IMG/VR virus record: IMGVR_UViG_3300010375_000006
Location: 1-43,856 of that record
Origin: a virus
Strand: one strand, 5' to 3'
Length of the DNA: 43,856 bases
Shown here piece by piece: positions 2,764 through 28,581 of the stretch. The notes beneath the pieces are model-generated. The model was not told the origin of the DNA. It saw only the letters and a list, made by a program, of their open reading frames with translations, and made no database searches. A program made the position numbers and the translations under genes. Each line of letters opens with the position of its first letter. Position 1 is the stretch's first letter.

Positions 2764-2972
2764 CACCGGCAGTCCCGGTTCGCAGCATGCCGCTGCCGTG
2801 CGCGCTCAAGGCACTTCTGCCGGTACGCCTCATCATGACGGTAACGCTCGCGCTGGCGGGCGCTCTGTTCGAGCCTGCGCGCCTTCTGCTGGCTTAGTAC
2901 GCGCTCCCTATATTCCGGGTCAGAGCGATAACGCTCGCGGCGATACCTGTTGCTGAGGGCTTCGTCGGTCAT
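2763..2972 (-). CDS. Small basic Arg/Tyr-repeat protein
   Basis: 69 aa with repeated RYR/ERYR motifs. ATGA overlap with the exonuclease stop. Confidence 0.5.
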   Translation of the reverse strand: MTDEALSNRYRRERYRSDPEYRERVLSQQKARRLEQSARQRERYRHDEAYRQKCLERARQRHAANRDCR

Positions 2973-3631
2973 CAGCCGGCCCGCACCAAATCCACCAGCG
3001 CTTCGGCGGCATCATTCGCGGGATCGTAGCGGCGGCGAAGCATGGTGACCTTGCGCACAACGTCCGCAAGAAAGGTCATCACCTCATATTCGAGCTTCGT
3101 GATGGCCTCCACGTCACGCTCTATGCGCTGGACGAACAGGCGCATCGACGCAGGCATTCGCGGATCGTACGAGACGTAATCGCACCACTGACGGCCAGTG
3201 CATGCCATTTGCCAGAGCATTTGGGTCCGATACTTCTCGGGGACAGCGCCGGTTTGCAGGGTGGCGATGTGCGTGGCCAGCGTCGGGCATTTTATCTCGA
3301 CCAATCCATCGTCGCTGACCAGCCCATCTGGCGAAGCCCCGGCTTCTGGAATGCCCGGATGAAACACGAATGCGCATTCCTCCACGTCCACATCATGCCG
3401 GAAGGCGTAGGCGGCGCGCGCCGCGGCCTCGTGCTCAGTGCCCCACTGCATCGCGGCGTTGGTGAAGCCCTGCTCAACGGTTCCGGTCAGCCTTTCGGCG
3501 ATCAACTGCGCTTCGTATTGAGCGCGCGATGCCGAAGGGCCGCTCTTGGTGCGCGCGATGATATCGGCGACACGCGATGCAGTGACTTTGCCGCAGCGCA
3601 CCGCAAACCATTCTGGCGATCCCTGGATCAC
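2972..3631 (-). CDS. YqaJ / lambda-exonuclease family recombination exonuclease
   Basis: MIQGSPEWFAVRCGKVTASR...GASPDGLV...VEIKCP are hallmark YqaJ motifs. It sits downstream of the annealase. Confidence 0.9.
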   Translation of the reverse strand: MIQGSPEWFAVRCGKVTASRVADIIARTKSGPSASRAQYEAQLIAERLTGTVEQGFTNAAMQWGTEHEAAARAAYAFRHDVDVEECAFVFHPGIPEAGASPDGLVSDDGLVEIKCPTLATHIATLQTGAVPEKYRTQMLWQMACTGRQWCDYVSYDPRMPASMRLFVQRIERDVEAITKLEYEVMTFLADVVRKVTMLRRRYDPANDAAEALVDLVRAG

Positions 3632-4410
3632 TTGGCACCGCCTTGTGCCGCAGCCGCCTTGGCTTGGCGTTCCGCTATCGTCGCATTGATGGATTCGATT
3701 GCGGTGCGATAATCCTTAGCGAGCAAAGCCGGGACATTGGGCACCCCCATGTAAGCGCAGAACTTGGCGGTATTAAGATTGTTCTCGCCCATCATGTCGT
3801 TGATGGTCTGGATCTGACGCTCTGTGATGTACTCGGCATTGTCGTTGCCGTCGCTGTCGTCATCGCCGACCGCGACGTTGAAAATGCCCTTGAGCAGGTA
3901 GCGCGACCCATAAGAGCCAGCCGCTCCGGCAGCGTGCGTCTTGGTCATCACGTCGCCGCCCTTGGCGCCCTTGCCATCGGCCGGCATGTCGCGATGGTAG
4001 GTGCGCGTGAAACCGCCGACATGCGAGACGTAGCAGAGCACTCGGATATGCTCCGGCTTCGGGCTCTCGCCTTCATCAAAGCTTAGCGCGAAGCCGTTCT
4101 TGGTGTATATCGGGCGAAGGGCGCGATCCAGTTGGGCATAGCTCGCGTAGTTGCTCTTGGTCTGGGGGTTGCTCGCATCCGCCGACACAGGGCGCATTTC
4201 CGCCTGTGCAGCCGTCATGGCGGAGTTGAACGCCTCTTCAGCGTTGCGCTGATAGACGCGCTCCTGCATCGCCAAGAGGCGTTCCATCTTGTCTATATCG
4301 ACAGACGGGTCACGCGCCGCACGCTCGATTACGGCAAGCAATCCAGCGGAATAATCCTGCACCTCGGCGAGCGGCGTTTCGACCCGCTGCGCTATGGCTT
4401 TGTCACTCAC
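3628..4410 (-). CDS. erf: ERF-family single-strand annealing protein
   Basis: NYASYAQLDRALRPIYTKNGFAL...AAGAAGSYGSRYLLKGIFNVAVGDDDSDGN parallels P22 Erf (YKYRSCEDIL..., GATSSYARKYCLNGLFGIDD). GTG 4410 has AAGGA 7 nt upstream. The longest ORF extends to 4497. Confidence 0.85.
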   Translation of the reverse strand: MSDKAIAQRVETPLAEVQDYSAGLLAVIERAARDPSVDIDKMERLLAMQERVYQRNAEEAFNSAMTAAQAEMRPVSADASNPQTKSNYASYAQLDRALRPIYTKNGFALSFDEGESPKPEHIRVLCYVSHVGGFTRTYHRDMPADGKGAKGGDVMTKTHAAGAAGSYGSRYLLKGIFNVAVGDDDSDGNDNAEYITERQIQTINDMMGENNLNTAKFCAYMGVPNVPALLAKDYRTAIESINATIAERQAKAAAAQGGAK

Positions 4411-4990
4411 GATCAGATCCTTTCTGCCCGCGAAATTCCGGTCTTTTCGCGGGCATTGGCCGGGCCGAAGGGCTTGTGTGCGGCGGGGCTGCTGCACTCA
4501 CGGCGGCGATCCTTTTTGCCTTACAGCGATGAAAGGCGTCTCGGCGGCAGGCTCGACAGTCGCGGCCACGGTACCCCCTATCGGTACGCCAATGAGTGTT
4601 AGCCTCGTCGTATGGGTGGCCATGCTTGCAGACCTGAATAGATTGCCGCGTTCCTCGTCCCCGCAGGGCCATATCGCGCATATTTTCAGCAGTCGTTCCG
4701 GGTCTCAGGTGGGCCGGATTGACGCACGGCGGGTTGTCGCACGAATGTAGGATAAACTTAGAACCGATTGATTCGTCTGGATTGGAAATTACCCAAGCTA
4801 GACGATGTGCTAGCGCGTATGTCGCAGAGCCATCTGCTGCACGATGCGAGAACACTCCGTACCCACGGAAGTTTTTTGTGCCAGTGAAGACCCAGCATTC
4901 ATCTTCTGATCGGCAATCTACCAGACTCCAAAATCGTACTTTGCTGGTGTCCGTGATGGCGAGATTAGCCAAGTTGATACGGCGCGCCAT
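4403..4990 (-). CDS. HNH homing-type endonuclease (HNH_3-like)
   Basis: GYGVFS...ALAHRLAWVI...ILHSCDNPPCVNPAHLRPGTTAENMRD. ATG 4990 is preceded by GAGGTGG. The 5' half (about 4740..4990) is visibly AT-richer than its surroundings. Confidence 0.85.
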   Translation of the reverse strand: MARRINLANLAITDTSKVRFWSLVDCRSEDECWVFTGTKNFRGYGVFSHRAADGSATYALAHRLAWVISNPDESIGSKFILHSCDNPPCVNPAHLRPGTTAENMRDMALRGRGTRQSIQVCKHGHPYDEANTHWRTDRGYRGRDCRACRRDAFHRCKAKRIAAVSAAAPPHTSPSARPMPAKRPEFRGQKGSDRE

Positions 4991-5118
4991 TACAGCCACC
5001 TCATCCAAACAGCTACGCTCACCGGGAGCAGCCCAAGGACGATCGCGATCGATAACCGCCTAGCCGTCCTATCCAGGAAAGGGACGATGGGGAGGACATC
5101 CATCGGTATGATGGGCAT
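4990..5118 (-). CDS. Possible 42-aa hydrophobic micro-ORF (weak)
   Basis: My translation: MPIIPMDVLPIVPFLDRTARRLSIAIVLGLLPVSVAVWMRWL. Its stop overlaps the HNH start (TAATG), but there is no clear RBS. Confidence 0.25.
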   Translation of the reverse strand: MPIIPMDVLPIVPFLDRTARRLSIAIVLGLLPVSVAVWMRWL

Positions 5119-5162: not shown

Positions 5163-5717
5163 TCATGCCAGTTCCTTCCGAAGTTGAGCGCGCAACTCGA
5201 TCTTCGCGACCAAGGGCTTATCGCCGGCGAGGTTGTTGCAAACCCGGTGAGCAAGGGCGTAATTGTCCAGTCGATTGCCGCCGCCTCTCGACTTCGGAAC
5301 AAGGTGTTCCAAGGTCGCATCGTCACCCATCGACTTCCCGCAAAACCAGCACTCGTCTCCATCGCGGGCGAGGAGCTTCCGGCGCACCTTGTCGCCGTGG
5401 CTTTCGGCTTTCGGGTCCTTGCCCGGCCGAGGGTTCACGGGCTCTGTCGCGCTCGCCGCCTGGGGCGACATTACATCACCACGCAGGAACGCCGCGTAAT
5501 GCTCGGCACTGCCGCTTGTGAACGTCAGCAGGCCATTTTCCTTGGCGTAGACAACATGGGTTGCAGCCCGCTTGCTGCCGCACCAAAAGGCGCGATAGCG
5601 GATCACCTCATAGGGGTTCGTCGGGGTCCCGATCTCCGCGCCGTTCCTCGCCAGCCATGCAGCGAAATTGCCGACCATGAATTGCGCGCGGCGGATTGGC
5701 ATTGGATGCTTAGCCAT
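5163..5717 (-). CDS. HNH endonuclease (C-terminal HNH motif)
   Basis: CWFCGKSMGDDATLEHLVPKSRGGGNRLDNYALAHRVCN. ATG 5717 has GGAG 8 nt upstream. The longest ORF extends to 5846. Confidence 0.85.
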   Translation of the reverse strand: MAKHPMPIRRAQFMVGNFAAWLARNGAEIGTPTNPYEVIRYRAFWCGSKRAATHVVYAKENGLLTFTSGSAEHYAAFLRGDVMSPQAASATEPVNPRPGKDPKAESHGDKVRRKLLARDGDECWFCGKSMGDDATLEHLVPKSRGGGNRLDNYALAHRVCNNLAGDKPLVAKIELRAQLRKELA

Positions 5718-5880
5718 TACCGCTCTCCAGCCGCGCATCACGCACGGCCCTGTTGGCTTCCCAGCGCTGTTCAAGTTGCCGGTCTGTGGTGTCCTCACGC
5801 ATCTGGCGGAGGGTTTCGGCTGCGACCGAAAGGTCCTGCGCGGCATCCAGCGCGGACATGGGGATTGGGTGCGGGGTCAT
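5710..5880 (-). CDS. Micro-ORF, 56 aa (not in track)
   Basis: My translation: MTPHPIPMSALDAAQDLSVAAETLRQMREDTTDRQLEQRWEANRAVRDARLESGNG. ATGA overlap upstream and an 8-nt overlap downstream. Confidence 0.5.
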   Translation of the reverse strand: MTPHPIPMSALDAAQDLSVAAETLRQMREDTTDRQLEQRWEANRAVRDARLESGNG

Positions 5881-6053: not shown

Positions 6054-6181
6054 CAAATCTGCTCCTCGGCCCAACAGTCGTCACACATGCGCTTGCCCTT
6101 GTCCTTCGCGCGGACGCACTCAGGACATGGGGTGATCCAGCGGGACCATGCGCGGCGGATGGCGGAGAGAAGGCGGCTCAT
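6053..6181 (-). CDS. Micro-ORF, 42 aa, zinc-ribbon-like (not in track)
   Basis: My translation: MSRLLSAIRRAWSRWITPCPECVRAKDKGKRMCDDCWAEEQI (CPEC...CDDC). ATGA overlap with the upstream stop. Confidence 0.5.
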   Translation of the reverse strand: MSRLLSAIRRAWSRWITPCPECVRAKDKGKRMCDDCWAEEQI

Positions 6182-6441
6182 GCCCCGAACCTCCGCGCAT
6201 CAGGCATCATCCGCCCATGTGCGTTCCAATATTCCCCGAATGCGTGCGCCCGCTCCTCGCTGACGTGCAGGCTCTCCATACCTTCAGCAAAGGTCCAGTC
6301 GTTGCCCTCGCCATAGCGACGGACGGACCAATCCAGACCCCGCCGTGCCGACCAATCGGGCTGCGGCTGGTAGGTTACTCTGTAGGAGCGCTGCGCTACC
6401 TGGGTGGGGGTAGCTGGCTTGAGGACTGGTTGGTGGAGCAT
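6178..6441 (-). CDS. Hypothetical 87-aa protein
   Basis: ORF coupled to the pentapeptide gene stop. No recognisable motif. Confidence 0.55.
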   Translation of the reverse strand: MLHQPVLKPATPTQVAQRSYRVTYQPQPDWSARRGLDWSVRRYGEGNDWTFAEGMESLHVSEERAHAFGEYWNAHGRMMPDARRFGA

Positions 6442-7136
6442 TATGCCTGCACCTTGCTGGCTTCGAGTTCGGCCAGCCGCTTCATGTCGGCCAGAGCCTC
6501 CTCGTTCGAGCAGTAGAAGCTTGGGAAGCGGTCAAGTGTGGGATCGCTGGCGAGGTAGATCAGGCTCGCCGCCGCAGCGGTGCCCATCCTCTCCTCAAGC
6601 TTCTTGCCCTCTTCGCCCGCGAGGGTCGTTACCCATCCGGCGCGGCAGTGCGTGGTATCGCATGTGTGCCAGTCGCCCATATTGAGCGCGTTGGGCGTGG
6701 CGGTCGCGGCGGCGTAGACCTTCTGGTGGATGTTTTCGATGACTGGGGCATCGCTCAGGACGGCATCGCTCAGGACGGCACCGCGCAGGACGGCACCGCG
6801 CAGGACGGCACCGCTCAGGACGGCATCGCTCAGGACGGCATCGCTCAGGTCGGCATCGCTCAGGACGGCATCGCTCAGGACGGCACCGCGCAGGACGGCA
6901 TCGCTCAGGACGGCACCGCTCAGGTCGGCACCGCGCAGGTCGGCATCGCGCAGGTCGGCACCGCTCAGGACGGCACCGCGCAGGACGGCATCGTTTCGCC
7001 TCGCCCACCGCACCGCCAAGCCGAGCTTCATGCCGATAGAGGCATCCGGGGCGCAGGTGATCTCGGCCGTGAACTGGACGCGGTTGGTCCAGCGGTTACG
7101 GATCTCAAACTTCTCTGTGGTGGGCGCAGTCGCCAT
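6441..7136 (-). CDS. Pentapeptide-repeat protein (16 perfect A-[VD]-L-[SR]-[GD] units) with a Cys/His-containing C-terminal domain
   Basis: [20 protein letters not shown]... GGAGGG RBS upstream of ATG 7136. It is the first gene downstream of the predicted leftward early promoter. Confidence 0.9.
6746..6985. repeat. Tandem repeat, 16 x 15 bp (cggcaYcgcKcaggW)
   Basis: Read unit by unit. Only three biallelic positions vary per unit. All six frames stay open across it. Confidence 0.95.
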
Positions 7137-7169
7137 CGTAGAACCCTCCGCCGTGATTGGCTTGGGAGG

Positions 7170-7198
7170 GTTATGTGTGAGATTTCACACGGCGTCAA
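7170..7198 (-). promoter_or_regulatory. Predicted leftward early promoter (PL analogue) with the operator in its spacer
   Basis: Minus strand reads TTGACG-17 nt-CATAAC. The spacer contains GTGTGAAATCTCACAC (7175..7190), the same 16-mer as at 8263..8278. Confidence 0.55.
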
Positions 7199-7204
7199 TA
7201 GCCA

Positions 7205-7221
7205 GTGTGGGATTTTTCACA
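7205..7221. promoter_or_regulatory. Degenerate auxiliary operator-like inverted repeat
   Basis: GTGTGGGATTTTTCACA, followed by an A/T-rich tract upstream of the PL -35. Confidence 0.3.
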
Positions 7222-7317: not shown

Positions 7318-7584
7318 TCAACCTGGTATACAGAAAGCGTAAGGCCGGTTGGGGCCTTGGAGGAGTGGCGGCACTGGCGATGGCTTCCCGTTGAGGCTGA
7401 CGATAGGGTCGCCTTCCGATAAAATTTGGGCTGCGGCCATTTCGCACCGCTTCGCCGTTTCGTACCGGATAACGACAGGGGGGCCATTGCCCCATCGCGC
7501 CACCAAATAGAACGGGCCTGGCCCATATTTCCAGTATGGGTTGCCCGCGTCGATCTGGGCAAACATCAGAGCGAGTGCAACCAC
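7318..7584 (-). CDS. 88-aa protein co-transcribed with the repressor (unknown function)
   Basis: GTG start is preceded by a perfect AGGAGG, 15 nt after the repressor stop. No motif recognised. Confidence 0.7.
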   Translation of the reverse strand: MVALALMFAQIDAGNPYWKYGPGPFYLVARWGNGPPVVIRYETAKRCEMAAAQILSEGDPIVSLNGKPSPVPPLLQGPNRPYAFCIPG

Positions 7585-7599
7585 CCTATCCTCCTAGAA

Positions 7600-8202
7600 T
7601 CACCGCCGTGGCATAACAAACAATACGGGTGCGGCCCATATAACCTCCACATTTTCCATGTCGGCGGCGTTGAGCGATCGTAGGGTATAGCGATCGGTCT
7701 GAGAACCGCTGGCCAGGATCTTGAGGTAGGTTCCGCCATCGGCCAGATGCACCGCGCAATATCGATTAAGGTAGGCAGGCAGCGCACCGTCATGGTCGCG
7801 GCGGACATAGATGATGTCGCCGGGCTCATACTTCGGGAGCATTGAGTCGCCGACCACTTCGAGCGCCATCATCGGGCCGGGGGCTAGGGGTGGGCGGGGC
7901 ACGAATTGCGGCTCGGCATCCTCGTTGATGTAGGCGACCAAGCCGCCAGCTCCGATACGTCCGAGCAACGGGACCTGTTCCGCTCCGCTGATGCTTTCAA
8001 ATGGCAATTCCAGGGCTTCCGCTATTTTGAACAGCGTGCCTATGCCGGGATTGTCCGTGCGTTCGAGAAGGTCGCGAACGGATGTCTGGCCGACGCCAGC
8101 TTTCTTGGACAGAGATCGGCGGCTGAAACCCTTTGCCGCCATCTCTGCCTCTATTCGGCGTCGAATCTCGTCGATGTTCACGGCCGCTGGCATGGGCGAC
8201 AT
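7600..8202 (-). CDS. CI/LexA-like repressor (XRE HTH plus S24 peptidase domain)
   Basis: HTH: RRSLSKKAGVGQTSVRDLL. Ala-Gly cleavage site candidate: IGAGG. S24 motifs: VVGDSMLPKYEPGDIIYV and a downstream Lys. ATG 8202. The longest ORF extends to 8316, across the operator. Confidence 0.9.
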   Translation of the reverse strand: MSPMPAAVNIDEIRRRIEAEMAAKGFSRRSLSKKAGVGQTSVRDLLERTDNPGIGTLFKIAEALELPFESISGAEQVPLLGRIGAGGLVAYINEDAEPQFVPRPPLAPGPMMALEVVGDSMLPKYEPGDIIYVRRDHDGALPAYLNRYCAVHLADGGTYLKILASGSQTDRYTLRSLNAADMENVEVIWAAPVLFVMPRR

Positions 8203-8256
8203 ATCACACGCGAGAGCGGCGTAATGGGACTGGCGAAATATCAGACGCGACGACCC

Positions 8257-8285
8257 TTGACCGTGTGAGATTTCACACATACACT
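8257..8285 (+). promoter_or_regulatory. Predicted rightward early promoter (PR analogue) with the operator in its spacer
   Basis: TTGACC-17 nt-TACACT. The spacer is GTGTGAGATTTCACAC (8263..8278) plus one nt. The -10 ends 8 nt before ATG 8294. Confidence 0.55.
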
Positions 8286-8293
8286 GCGCAGCC

Positions 8294-8491
8294 ATGGAAA
8301 CGCTGCTCTCTGACATTGAAAGCTTTCTTAGCGATCATCCCGAATTGAGTGAATGGCAGTTCGGCGAATTGGCGCTCAATGACCGAAAGTTCATTGCCCA
8401 ATTGCGTGACAATCGTGAGCCGCGCCGAAAGACGGTCGCTCGCGTCCGAAGCTTCATGCAAGATTATGTCCCGACCGCAGAGGCAGCATGA
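8294..8491 (+). CDS. Cro-position small regulator candidate (65 aa)
   Basis: Divergent from the repressor and first gene after predicted PR. EWQFGELALNDRKFIAQLRDNREPRRKTVARVRSFM resembles small prophage DNA-binding proteins. Confidence 0.6.
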   Translation: METLLSDIESFLSDHPELSEWQFGELALNDRKFIAQLRDNREPRRKTVARVRSFMQDYVPTAEAA

Positions 8492-8730
8492 CCCTGCGCC
8501 CAACCGCTGCCCCTGCGCATTTCCCTTACGCGCATCGGACGCTCGAAGAGATCGCGCGCGCCGAACACATAACCGAGCAATGCCATTGCACGGTCTGTCG
8601 GCTGCACGCTCTGGATGCGCAGACCCACTATCACACCATCTCCCGGAGCGGTTTCGCCATCGCCGCCGAGAGGGCCGTCCCGTCTATCCCTGTGGGCGGG
8701 ACGGCCGTTTCTTCGCGGGGGCGGGCGTAA
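8488..8730 (+). CDS. Hypothetical protein (80 aa)
   Basis: ATGA overlap with the upstream gene. Composition is only moderately protein-like. Confidence 0.4.
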   Translation: MTLRPTAAPAHFPYAHRTLEEIARAEHITEQCHCTVCRLHALDAQTHYHTISRSGFAIAAERAVPSIPVGGTAVSSRGRA

Positions 8731-10152: not shown

Positions 10153-10451
10153 CCCTCCTATGGGAAGCCCTACCCCTGGCAACACTGACAGGGACATCGC
10201 TGTATGGCTTGGTGAAGTGGCGTGATGCGCAGCGGGAAGCAAACTGGCTAAGACGTCGCCTTCGTAGAACGTCTTCAGCCAGCAACGACTTCGCGGACCT
10301 TTATGGGGCCGCTCAACGCCGTCTCGACGCCATTCGCTTGCAGCGCTCCGAAACCACGCGCCGTGGAAATCTCACCCGCTCCGCCAACCGCAAGGCCGCT
10401 GAAGCAGCCAAGAGGGCAGAGACGACCTATCGTCTGGAGGTGGGACGGTGA
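10149..10451 (+). CDS. Hypothetical basic coiled protein (100 aa)
   Basis: Coupled ORF (ATGA). N-terminal hydrophobic segment. Confidence 0.5.
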   Translation: MTLLWEALPLATLTGTSLYGLVKWRDAQREANWLRRRLRRTSSASNDFADLYGAAQRRLDAIRLQRSETTRRGNLTRSANRKAAEAAKRAETTYRLEVGR

Positions 10452-11044
10452 GCCGCCGCGGTGATGTAAACTGGACCCCCGAGCTTAAGGCCAGGCTGAA
10501 AGCCATGGTCGATCAGGGGATCTCGGACAGCCGTATCGGCCACGACATGGGTGTGAGCAAGGGTTGCATATCCGGGGCTCGGACGCGCTTCGGGATCAAA
10601 TCCACGGTCGTCCTGCACAGCGTCAAGCGCCCGCCCGCCGACTTCCTTGAGGTTGGTCCGACCCTGACTCTTCAGGGCTGTGCAAGGCATTACGGCGCGT
10701 CACCATCCACCGCAAAGGCATGGTACGAGCTTCTCGACATCACACCCGCCGCACGGGTCTACGTCAAGCTGGAAAGGACCCCCAAGGCGCCAACGCCACC
10801 GCGCGCACCCCAGCGGGTCTATCAGCGCGGCTTCAGCACCATGCAGGCCATGCGCGCTCCAGAGCGGGCGTCAACCTTAGCCTCCTGTGCCCAGCTTCAC
10901 CTGCAACGCTATTTCCCCGTCTACAGGGCAAAGATTCAATTCCGCAACGCTCCGGATGACGCGTGGATCGTAGCCGGTCGGAGAATTTCCGAAGCCGAGA
11001 TGATCCAGATTGCCCAGCGCAAGGGCTTCGAGGTGGCGGCATGA
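10448..11044 (+). CDS. GcrA-like cell-cycle regulator homologue (N-terminal domain)
   Basis: VNWTPELKARLKAMVDQGISDSRIGHDMGVSKGCISGARTRFGIK parallels Caulobacter GcrA (SWTDERV..LKKLW..GLSASQIA..LG.VSRNAVIGKVHRLGL). Confidence 0.6.
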   Translation: MSRRGDVNWTPELKARLKAMVDQGISDSRIGHDMGVSKGCISGARTRFGIKSTVVLHSVKRPPADFLEVGPTLTLQGCARHYGASPSTAKAWYELLDITPAARVYVKLERTPKAPTPPRAPQRVYQRGFSTMQAMRAPERASTLASCAQLHLQRYFPVYRAKIQFRNAPDDAWIVAGRRISEAEMIQIAQRKGFEVAA

Positions 11045-27093: not shown

Positions 27094-28581
27094 ATGGGTT
27101 TGTCTTCCAGTAAAACCAAGACCACCAACGACCCTTGGGCGCCCGCACAGCCGTTTATCCTCAAGGGCATGCAGCAGACCAACCAGGTCTTTGATCAGAA
27201 CCAGCCCACGCTGGAGAAGATGAGCGGACTGGCGCAGGACGCTTTTCAGAAGCTCGCCCCGACAGCATTCAGCCCAAGCCCCTATGTGACGGGGGCGCAG
27301 AACGCCGCCTCAAACATCGCGGGCGGGGCCTATATGGGCAACAATCCCGGCGCAGCTACTTACGATGCGATCCAGAATGGCGCAAACCCGGCGCTCGCCC
27401 CGCTTTCCGGCCTCGCCAATGGTGGCGGCGTCAATCCCGCCTTCGCCCGCCTCTCGGATCTGGCCTCAGGCACGGCGGTCAATCCGGCAACTGGTCATCT
27501 CAACGCGATTGCTGGAGGCGATTATTCCAACCCTGCGGATACCTATGCCCAGTCCGTGGTAGGCGGAAAATATCTCAACGCCCAGCCTTCCGCGGGCGTC
27601 TACGGCAACATCATGAGCGCGGACTATCTCAAGGGTAATCCGTACATCGACCAGATCGTCGCACAGACCGGCGCTGACGTGCAGAAGCAGGCCAATCAGC
27701 GTTTCGGCGCTGCTGGAATGGGCTCTGGCCTGTCGAGCGCTTTTGCGGATTTGCTATCGAAAAACCTCGCCAAGAACGAGACCGGGCTTCGTTACCAGAA
27801 CTACAACGATAGCGCGAACCGCCAGCTTACGGCGGCCGGACAGTCGGACGCTGCTTTCAGTGCCGAACGCAACCGGCAGATGGACGCAAATGGCCTGATC
27901 TCGGGGAACTACAATACAGGCCAGCAGAACAGGCTGACGGCTGCGAATGCTCTCGGGTCCCAATTCCTGACGGGCCAGCAGAACCAATTGTCCGCCGCTG
28001 GCGCCCTGGGCTCACAATTCTTGCAGGGGCAGCAAAACCAGACGAGTGCCGCGAATGCTCTCGGGTCCCAATTCAGTCAGCAGCAGCAGAACCAGCTGGC
28101 GGCAGCGGGTGCTTCGGACGCCTCGCGGAATGCCGGTATCGCCCAGATGCTTGAAGCGGCGGGCCTTGCTCCCTCTCTTTCCGCTGCGCAATATAACGGC
28201 GTTACGCCCGCCCTCTCACTGCTCAATACGGCGGCCGATATTCCGTATGTCGGCACGGCGGCCCTCAACGGACAGATCCGGCAAGCTTCCAACGGCTATG
28301 GCACGAGCACTACCAAGAGCAACCAGAGTATCATGAGTGGCCTCGGACAGCTTGGTCAGGCGGCGGGCACGGCGGCGATGGTGTTCTCCGATATTCGCCT
28401 CAAGCGTGACATTGAACCGGCTGGCCAGTTTGACGACGGGCTTGGGATCTACCGCTACCGCTACCTATGGGATGACGAACCGCGCGTCGGCGTGATGGCG
28501 CATGAAGTCGCCGTGCATCGTCCGTGGGCTCTTGGCCCTGAGATCGGCGGATATGCCACTGTGAATTACGGAGCGCTCTAA
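27094..28581 (+). CDS. Tail fibre/needle with a C-terminal S74 intramolecular-chaperone (auto-cleaving) domain
   Basis: SDIRLKRDIEPAGQFDDGLGIYRYRYLWDDEPRVGVMAHEV is the S74 signature. Q/N-rich 18-aa repeats lie upstream of it. Confidence 0.8.
   Translation: MGLSSSKTKTTNDPWAPAQPFILKGMQQTNQVFDQNQPTLEKMSGLAQDAFQKLAPTAFSPSPYVTGAQNAASNIAGGAYMGNNPGAATYDAIQNGANPALAPLSGLANGGGVNPAFARLSDLASGTAVNPATGHLNAIAGGDYSNPADTYAQSVVGGKYLNAQPSAGVYGNIMSADYLKGNPYIDQIVAQTGADVQKQANQRFGAAGMGSGLSSAFADLLSKNLAKNETGLRYQNYNDSANRQLTAAGQSDAAFSAERNRQMDANGLISGNYNTGQQNRLTAANALGSQFLTGQQNQLSAAGALGSQFLQGQQNQTSAANALGSQFSQQQQNQLAAAGASDASRNAGIAQMLEAAGLAPSLSAAQYNGVTPALSLLNTAADIPYVGTAALNGQIRQASNGYGTSTTKSNQSIMSGLGQLGQAAGTAAMVFSDIRLKRDIEPAGQFDDGLGIYRYRYLWDDEPRVGVMAHEVAVHRPWALGPEIGGYATVNYGAL

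Follow-up and report, generated by a model that had tools for sequence, protein, structure and literature searches.

Positions 1 to 43,856 of the IMG/VR virus record IMGVR_UViG_3300010375_000006, a stretch of 43,856 nucleotides referred to here as the window, represent a temperate, P22-like podovirus with genes for terminase, portal, major head protein, ejection protein and integrase. On its minus strand (6441..7136; ATG at 7136, TAA at 6443..6441) the window carries a gene for a 231-amino-acid (aa), three-module pentapeptide-repeat protein, the middle module of which is encoded by a 15-bp tandem array. Across the family of related genes such arrays undergo concerted evolution with polymorphism retained at exactly three solvent-exposed residues, and they change by in-frame gain or loss of whole units or blocks, whereas the C-terminal domain that follows them (C-domain) carries an invariant histidine- and cysteine-rich motif. 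The reading proposed here, to which about even weight is given, is that the protein acts as a fast-evolving early accessory factor in phage-host conflict with a conserved effector C-domain.

The Repeat Gene and Its 15-bp Array

Tandem Repeats Finder placed the array at 6747..6993 on the minus strand (period 15, 16.5 copies, 91% matches, score 368), where it comprises 16 units in exact register (6986..6747) and a partial leading unit. In the coding register, the unit G[T/A]C CTG [A/C]GC G[A/G]T GCC, translated as [V/D]-L-[S/R]-[D/G]-A, occurs 16 times in a row, and residues 50-129 accordingly read as 16 pentapeptides of the form A-[V/D]-L-[S/R]-[G/D], equal to about four coils of a beta-helix. 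Twelve positions of the unit are invariant and three are biallelic, with the minor alleles present in 4/16, 6/16 and 7/16 units; all three are nonsynonymous (V/D, S/R and G/D), and the number of synonymous differences is zero. The inward-facing alanine and leucine are constant in all 16 units and nearly constant across the family, and valine occupies the exposed i-1 position in 12 of the 16. The GC content at third codon positions of the gene is 0.81. An earlier note on this DNA, made from the sequence alone, had described 16 units, three nonsynonymous biallelic sites and no synonymous difference, and all of this was confirmed by unit-by-unit reading, as was its remark that the first plus-strand unit begins with ggg; the array coordinates that it gave (6746..6985) denote the same array, one base off relative to 6747..6986. 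In the window gene alone, the zero synonymous differences are weak evidence, because with three variable sites about four in ten random placements would be nonsynonymous throughout, and the absence gains its meaning from the recurrence of the pattern across the family.

It is hardly credible that metagenome assembly produced or distorted the array or its length. The window is a metagenome contig, the contigs of many relatives end inside the array, and some short variants resemble collapsed longer ones; yet the longest exact repeat inside the window array is 49 bp, so that the array is resolvable with k >= 51 or with reads of 100-150 nt, the frame is open throughout, conserved domains lie on either side of the array, and the same architecture is found in thousands of independent sequences as well as in isolate phage genomes. 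An exact-flank scan of the metagenome collection for the window array returned 0 matches, and the closest relative of the locus in that collection shows 76% identity; the collections searched hold no near-identical contig against which the exact copy number of the window array could be checked.

Concerted Evolution and Copy-Number Change across the Family

The DNA-level set consisted of 64 arrays from 80 viral-contig loci together with the window. Third-position diversity was zero in 51 of the 64 arrays, and the consensus units of different genes differ at 20% of third positions (GCC/GCT/GCG/GCA; GGT/GGC/GGG), showing that conversion erases silent differences inside a gene. Polymorphism, on the other hand, is present at the first base of codon 4 in 58 of the arrays and at the second base of codon 5 in 60 of them, with a mean heterozygosity of 0.36-0.40 at the polymorphic surface codon sites.

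At the protein level, 6347 full-length relatives were matched, of which the best 120 all exhibit the three-module architecture, with lengths of 169-311 aa and arrays of 6-33 units of the form A-[D/V/N/Y]-L-[R/S]-[G/D]. Copy number ranges from 3 to 33 units over the family and varies even between genes with identical flanks: 30 protein pairs have flanks that are 100% identical (135 aa compared) and arrays that differ, mostly by nested block indels, and one clade with identical flanks contains arrays of 27, 15, 12, 11, 11 and 3 units. Copy number therefore changes faster than the flanks mutate. The same process was observed in isolates, where the Ralstonia phages DLDT_So2 and BHDT_So9 are set apart here only by a single block of 45 bp (three units), their flanks showing no mismatch over 900 nt on the upstream side and 1980 nt on the downstream side and their genome lengths differing by 45 bp; likewise, in the P22-like orf232 group, the near-identical phages L and ST64T are one 15-bp unit apart (PMC8022706). 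These isolate genomes confirm copy-number change as a genuine process, and the arrays are shown to gain and lose whole units or blocks in frame, via slippage or unequal recombination. The suggestion that the window array had expanded by slippage or recombination with variation kept at surface positions, for which a comparison of copy number among related phages had been proposed as a check, is thereby extended from one gene to the family.

Arrays also act as assembly break points, at least 10 of 80 metagenome loci beginning or ending within the array and viral contigs behaving likewise, which calls for caution with metagenomic copy numbers and with truncated proteins that seem to consist of the C-domain only. 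Array-broken short-read contigs include L179, L184, L187, L190 and L192-L195, and the IMG/VR loci L046, L058, L060, L064, L070 and L075.

Fast combinatorial surface change on a constant scaffold, with variable codons of the NNC type, is a likeness that the arrays share with in-frame minisatellite contingency loci and with diversity-generating retroelements (DGRs), the other phage route known for diversifying a surface. A DGR came into consideration because the variable unit positions (4, 5, 10 and 14) coincide with the adenines of GCCAACCTGAGCGAT; only 2-3 alleles, however, are present per site, and the coincidence is expected by chance about once in 15 if only surface codons are presumed free to vary. 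A DGR mechanism was rejected, as the window showed neither a template copy of the array nor a reverse transcriptase: the array unit recurs nowhere else in it, and no reverse transcriptase domain was present in the ten remaining unannotated window open reading frames (ORFs) of 174-491 aa; one YADD-containing ORF was seen, without a Pfam match. In contrast to DGRs, diversity here arises from unit gain, loss and conversion among few alleles, and the target is predicted to be an intracellular early protein rather than a receptor-binding tail protein.

Protein Modules and Predicted Fold

The 231-aa protein matches PF00805 with 95.9 bits against a cut-off of 20.2 (E 9.3e-28) and PF13576 with 36 bits against 27, and its 16 uninterrupted A(D/N)LXX units compare with the minimum of 8 contiguous units used to define a pentapeptide-repeat protein. 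Residues 42-229 match phrog_31265, a family of 'unknown function' (E 1.6e-63), which is also matched by all 54 members of the family alignment A2. An AlphaFold2 (AF2) model with a mean predicted local distance difference test (pLDDT) score of 85 divides the protein into an N-terminal cap (N-cap, aa 1-49), a beta-helix (aa 50-130) and the C-domain (aa 131-231). The array forms a strand ladder in this model, with one short strand per unit and pLDDT values mostly of 89-94 but of 84 and 78 at its last units, and is predicted to take the form of a quadrilateral, right-handed beta-helix. Foldseek matched it to Np275, synthetic or designed solenoids, HetL, MfpA, QnrB1, AlbG and the helices of NleL/SopA, with a probability of 1.00 to 2j8i, 4yei, 3du1 and 6zt4. 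Pfam, the AF2 ladder and Foldseek thus agree, as a prediction, with the pentapeptide-repeat beta-helix that the earlier note had assigned to the protein.

The N-cap (6990..7136, minus strand) consists of a beta-hairpin (residues 6-28) and a helix (34-47) with pLDDT values of 82-94; its motif ends in KLGLAVRWA, and N14, R15, W16, F22, T23, A24, K37, G39, L40, A41 and W44 are nearly invariant. With PF00805 proteins such as Np275/Np276, HetL and Rfr32, the phage protein shares units of the A(D/N)LXX type, inward alanine and leucine, and strong Pfam and Foldseek matches. It differs from them in that the array units are near-identical in DNA and homogenised within the gene, in the frequent exposed i-1 valine and hypervariable copy number, and in the dedicated N-cap and orphan C-domain that flank the array.

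A Conserved C-Terminal Domain with Exchangeable Repeat Partners

The C-domain (6444..6746, minus strand) is an orphan domain of five predicted helices that is conserved in phages of many phyla; modelled alone, it reaches a pLDDT of 87.5 and a predicted template modelling score of 0.81. It has no Pfam family in searches with the protein and 54 family members, nothing significant was found in NCBIfam, in PADLOC or, by sequence and by profile, in the Protein Data Bank (PDB), and the Foldseek comparison of its model with PDB folds gave no match (best E 1.4). The earlier note had likewise left this domain without an assigned function. It contains the invariant motif W156-H157-x-C159-x3-H163-C164-R165-A166-G167-W168 (6633..6671, minus strand), taken from the invariant columns of alignments A1 and A2; the invariant residues of the domain are H137, W156, H157, C159, H163, C164, R165, G167 and W168, and in the AF2 secondary structure C164 lies directly ahead of helix 165-172. 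This His/Cys cluster, together with the invariant H137, suggests a candidate metal or thiol centre.

Two recurring weak matches of the domain were examined and set aside. A similarity to mitochondrial RbfA (E 0.0045-0.0066) is a short local one (CRAxW.TTL), and it was rejected because the KH-type alpha/beta fold of RbfA clashes with the all-helical C-domain model. Matches to the AvrPtoB E3 domain (PF09046, E 0.002 in 4 of 54 members; 2fd4, E 0.22) recur below threshold and were taken as chance, since they have no Foldseek support.

An exhaustive search with the C-domain by itself returned 1586 cluster representatives (50% identity clusters) at E<=1e-3, from Proteobacteria, Bacteroidota, Acidobacteriota, Planctomycetota, Cyanobacteria, Patescibacteria and other hosts. 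The N-terminal partners of the domain are several kinds of pentapeptide array, hexapeptide (AAQIGD) arrays supported by a Pfam Hexapep match (E 1e-9), arrays resembling leucine-rich repeats (LRR-like), long (Cys-Ser-X)n arrays, or none. The Cys-Ser-X arrays reach 54 perfect 9-bp units, in which the third codon alone varies, and only at its first two bases (GAC, GGC, CGC, TAC), the pattern being that of the pentapeptide arrays. Since the C-domain is attached in other phages to non-pentapeptide arrays or to none, it is this domain, and not a DNA-shaped rod, that forms the conserved element of the family. Loci with (Cys-Ser-X)n arrays (L105, L106, L116, L131 and L139) were observed in Dyadobacter, Kaistia, Rhizorhapis and others, with D, G, R, Y or H as X and with conserved N-termini such as W[IL]TD.NGNRCS[IV]EYFGS ahead of the array. 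In Xanthomonas sp. NCPPB 1128, two identical family members with A-D-L-[S/R]-[G/C] arrays (L095 and L096) lie 37 kb apart on one contig, presumably in two related prophages or in a duplicated prophage segment.

The reverse exchange was also observed, as gp021 of Caulobacter phage RapA has the same N-cap and a pentapeptide array ahead of a different C-domain, with the motif GCQxH...EI..MDGR.A.KFW, which also occurs in orf19 of Salmonella phage ST104. These genes form a second early pentapeptide-repeat family (L081, 2743-3387, for ST104 orf19; L167, 2489-3322, for RapA gp021). The P22-like orf232, ST104 orf19 and RapA gp021 resemble the window gene in the DNA unit GCC xAC CTG xxC GxT with variation in the same surface codons, and in their early-left position (ral-orf19-orf18-17); they differ from it in the other C-terminal domain (GCQxH...MDGR.A.KFW), and ST104 orf19 also in its N-terminus, whereas RapA gp021 has the N-cap in common with the window protein. 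The array of ST104 orf19 is 68% GC and has the same GC-rich unit, while the rest of the gene is 39% GC, a contrast which suggests array transfer between phages or strong codon convergence.

The exchange of partners also bears on the explanation that the array is an inert spacer or neutral minisatellite, whose length and surface matter little, with only the N-cap and C-domain being functional; the recurring polymorphism would then be a biophysical matter, keeping the solenoid from becoming homopolymeric, prone to aggregate or over-charged. This is considered quite unlikely, although several observations agree with it: units follow one another along the arrays in statistically random order, with near independence among the three sites, no periodicity was detected at lag 4 (one helix face), copy number shows no preference modulo 4, 3-33 units are tolerated, and stand-alone C-domains occur. 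Neutral conversion, however, should also erase the three polymorphisms, yet these are kept in 58-60 of 64 arrays, whereas synonymous sites have been cleaned; moreover, four unrelated repeat types have been repeatedly recruited to the same C-domain, which suggests selection for having an array at all.

Immunity Switch and Early-Left Operon

Upstream of the repeat gene, a PL-like sigma-70 promoter was read from the sequence at 7170..7198 on the minus strand, with TTGACG (7198..7193), a 17-nt spacer and CATAAC (7175..7170), followed by a ribosome-binding site GGAGGG (7144..7149, minus strand) 7 nt ahead of the ATG. This promoter mirrors the PR promoter TTGACC-17-TACACT (8257..8285, plus strand); a simple promoter scanner had overlooked PL, the -10 hexamer of which ends in C. 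The palindrome GTGTGAGATTTCACAC (operator OL1, 7175..7190) fills the PL spacer, and an identical 16-mer, operator OR, lies in the PR spacer at 8263..8278; the inverted arms, each of 21 nt (7172-7192 and 8261-8281), show 90% complementarity. Weaker copies of the operator are located at 7205-7221 and 8194-8209, the former being OL2 (TGTGGGATTTTTCACA, 7205..7221), with 81% identity to OL1 and its centre 31 bp away. The region as a whole has the appearance of a mirror-image immunity switch (7172-7221 and 8194-8285) with one 16-bp palindrome inside both early-promoter spacers. The switch includes a CI/LexA-type repressor gene (7600..8316, minus strand; phrog_4 transcriptional repressor, E 3.2e-24), the true start of which is probably M39 at 8202, the helix-turn-helix region starting near aa 43. 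PR would drive a 65-aa cro-like ORF (8294..8491), and homologues of this ORF are divergent from the repeat gene in loci L009 and L041.

A terminator-like hairpin with a T-run (7512..7526, minus strand) lies downstream of the repressor gene and is predicted to separate the repressor transcript from PL. The paired operators, the mirrored promoters, the ribosome-binding site and this hairpin support the placing of the repeat gene as the first gene of a predicted repressor-controlled leftward operon, with repression predicted from the operators. As in lambdoid PL operons, the promoter is overlapped by operators shared with the switch, and the gene strand leads away from it. The earlier statement that this is the first gene after a repressor-controlled PL-like promoter is thus borne out by the promoter, by OL1 and OL2 and by the CI-type repressor. 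Beyond the repeat gene, the leftward operon contains small ORFs, three HNH endonuclease ORFs (2276-2659, 4403-5008 and 5163-5846, minus strand), an Erf gene (3628-4497) and a RecE-like exonuclease gene (2972-3631), the HNH ORFs being interleaved with the latter two. Directly downstream, an 87-aa ORF (6178..6441, minus strand) has an ATG that overlaps the TAA of the repeat gene (TAATG), which suggests translational coupling of the two; it gave no match in PHROG or PADLOC and no tblastn match in 80 related loci, and is not kept beside homologues of the repeat gene.

The same region bears on whether the protein could instead be a defence or superinfection-exclusion factor of the prophage, made in the lysogen as rexAB is from its place downstream of cI. 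The gene does share the strand of the repressor gene and follow it directly, and pentapeptide repeats serve as sensor modules in some defence proteins (bioRxiv 10.1101/2022.07.19.500537; PMC13586616). The terminator-like hairpin and two operators over the gene's own promoter nevertheless stand between it and cI, homologues are found in the early regions of strictly lytic Autographiviridae, and PADLOC returned only a low-complexity match of 16.9 bits, so that this explanation is very improbable. An ORF at 7318..7584 was considered as a rex-like gene and rejected, as it overlaps the terminator-like hairpin and has no homologues; it is probably no gene.

Some further features of the window were observed. 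The terminator-like minus-strand GC hairpins form a 25-nt direct repeat (7504-7528 and 7617-7641, 76% identity), in which the hairpin at 7617-7641 lies within the 3' end of the repressor gene and that at 7504-7528 about 75 nt beyond the repressor stop. Downstream of the cro-like ORF, a very strong plus-strand hairpin at 8673-8706, with a 15-bp stem containing 10 GC pairs followed by a T-run, may be the early-right terminator and hence a possible antitermination target. A degenerate 54-bp tandem repeat (27922-28095, 3.2 copies, 66% matches) is located within a virion structural ORF (27094-28581). At 10448-11044 on the plus strand, a weak GcrA-like match stays below threshold (E 9e-4; 20 bits, with the cut-off at 26.9), which, if real, would indicate an alphaproteobacterial host.

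Genomic Context of Homologues

Homologues in prophages lie between the immunity switch and the integrase, usually a few small genes from ERF, YqaJ or SSB recombination genes, and their accessory neighbours include Lar, Tad2-like, NADAR and methyltransferase genes, as well as Ral. In the Ralstonia phage RpY1, the repeat gene comes first and is divergent from a cI-like regulator, and in lytic Autographiviridae, including Ralstonia podoviruses, it is found in the early region ahead of the primase. No conserved partner gene was detected when 15 window neighbours were compared with 80 loci by tblastn, recombination and HNH genes being the only ones to recur. From this gene order, an early and accessory location is a family trait, and first-in-operon position is not. 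The likeness to T7 Ocr that had been drawn from first-gene position therefore holds for the window and for RpY1 and fails across the family.

Comparison with DNA Mimics and Other Known Systems

The function suggested earlier for the gene was that of a DNA mimic, in which the acidic beta-helix would imitate B-DNA and block type I/III restriction, BREX, gyrase or RecBCD/AddAB, with the C-domain serving to dimerise or dock. Pentapeptide-repeat helices have roughly the diameter of DNA, and lambda Gam and P22 Abc2 are precedents for RecBCD blocking. MfpA, QnrB1 and AlbG are among the fold matches, and the early-operon gene stands upstream of Erf and the exonuclease in a window in which no anti-RecBCD gene of the Gam or Abc2 kind was recognised; an anti-RecBCD role of that kind would be the most specific version of the proposal. 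The Lar and Ral genes that neighbour homologues in other prophages are restriction-alleviation genes, which also agrees with it. As to charge, the window array has a net value of -6 over its 16 units (about -0.31 e/Å), and net negative arrays make up 87% of the family, the family median being -0.24 e/Å, which is compatible with mimicry, whereas B-DNA in standard geometry has -0.59 e/Å, the family extends from -0.76 to +0.36 e/Å with 13% of its arrays neutral or positive, and no periodic or face-specific charge pattern was observed.

Other evidence makes a DNA mimic unlikely. A fixed DNA geometry is hard to reconcile with arrays that vary from 3 to 33 units between identical flanks and are neutral or positive in 13% of cases; valine occupies most of the exposed i-1 positions in the window array, and the C-domain is found, besides, joined to arrays that are Cys-rich, LRR-like or hexapeptide, or to no array. 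The topoisomerase-protecting pentapeptide-repeat proteins Qnr, MfpA and AlbG mimic the DNA T-segment (PMC7980463, PMC7897471). The phage protein shares with them the predicted fold, net negative charge, similar size and a place in the Foldseek list, but its NCBIfam scores miss the cut-offs more than ten-fold in bits (Qnr, 20.9 against 240; MfpA, 26.3 against 360; QnrB, 17.7 against 460), a 100-aa helical domain replaces their C-terminal dimerisation helix, and it is variable in length, phage-borne and encoded in an early operon. The surface loops A and B of Qnr interrupt the helix and are needed for activity. The 16 units of the window array are uninterrupted by any insertion, and so leave no room for loops of the Qnr type.

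T7 Ocr and ArdA are DNA-mimic anti-restriction proteins (PMC7261183, PMC2731889), and neither was matched when the protein was searched against Pfam, PHROG, NCBIfam, PDB sequences and Foldseek. Like them, the phage protein is an acidic accessory protein of a mobile element, early as read from the promoter sequence, and in the window it is encoded first in the early operon; it differs from them in its fold class, in a length that is not conserved, and in an array charge density about half that of DNA and variable across the family. The specific comparison with Ocr or Qnr consequently finds no support in these data. The type III effectors NleL, SopA and PipB2 also place a pentapeptide beta-helix ahead of a separate C-terminal domain and are in the Foldseek list, but the NCBIfam cut-offs were not reached (PipB2, 48.9 bits against 354; PipB, 33.8 against 274), and the phage C-domain is about 100 aa long and not HECT-like. 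By these comparisons, the protein belongs to the pentapeptide-repeat superfamily and to phrog_31265, and is not a member of the Qnr/MfpA/AlbG, Ocr/ArdA or NleL/SopA/PipB2 families. Full-text literature searches found no functional study of the repeat-protein family, the single related remark being that on the one-unit difference of phage L (PMC8022706).

Proposed Role and Implications

In the proposed role of an early accessory factor in phage-host conflict, the repeat gene would be transcribed from the CI-repressed PL-like promoter once repression is absent. The C-domain would be the constant working part, an effector or an anchor, and probably metal- or thiol-dependent, while the beta-helix would form an exchangeable, quickly retunable and mostly acidic rod that provides reach, bulk, or a variable binding or decoy surface, and selection would maintain the heterogeneous surface of the array. 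The genomic company of the gene points to a role at the start of infection, which may be counter-defence or host takeover.

Several points weigh against this interpretation. No homologue of known function was found, the PHROG match being of 'unknown function' and PADLOC giving nothing relevant, and conservation is the sole ground for ascribing a metal or thiol role to the His/Cys cluster. Guilt by association is weak because no gene is consistently linked to the repeat gene. The random unit order, with no patterned face of the beta-helix, fits a loosely constrained spacer as well, and folding, solubility or charge balance could be reason enough for a heterogeneous surface to be kept. Short-read metagenome assemblies, finally, which are often broken inside arrays, account for part of the spread in copy number.

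A wider reading, tentative and less probable than not, is that phages of many phyla share a repeat-driven diversification device directed against host defences, consisting of a His/Cys 'HCRAGW' effector domain joined to solenoid arrays of short units, such as 15-bp pentapeptide, 18-bp hexapeptide, 9-bp Cys-Ser-X and LRR-like units. Slippage and conversion would homogenise these arrays, sparing a few codons of the surface (NNC/GNT: D, G, R, S, Y, N, V), and the outcome would be a combinatorial, length-adjustable surface carried by an early intracellular protein. Such a device would be the counterpart of DGRs that needs no template. While the fold itself is familiar, three things appear to be undescribed, namely the orphan C-domain, the exchange of one repeat type for another, and the combination of homogenised scaffold, polymorphic surface and hypervariable length.

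Pentapeptide-repeat genes in phage genomes are routinely annotated and then ignored, and their arrays break short-read assemblies and inflate the apparent protein diversity of metagenomic catalogues. The undescribed and widespread C-domain, with neither a Pfam family nor a solved fold, is a clear structural and functional target. If the surface of the array meets the host, it would represent a second, reverse-transcriptase-independent route of phage protein diversification, acting on an early intracellular factor and not on a tail fibre.

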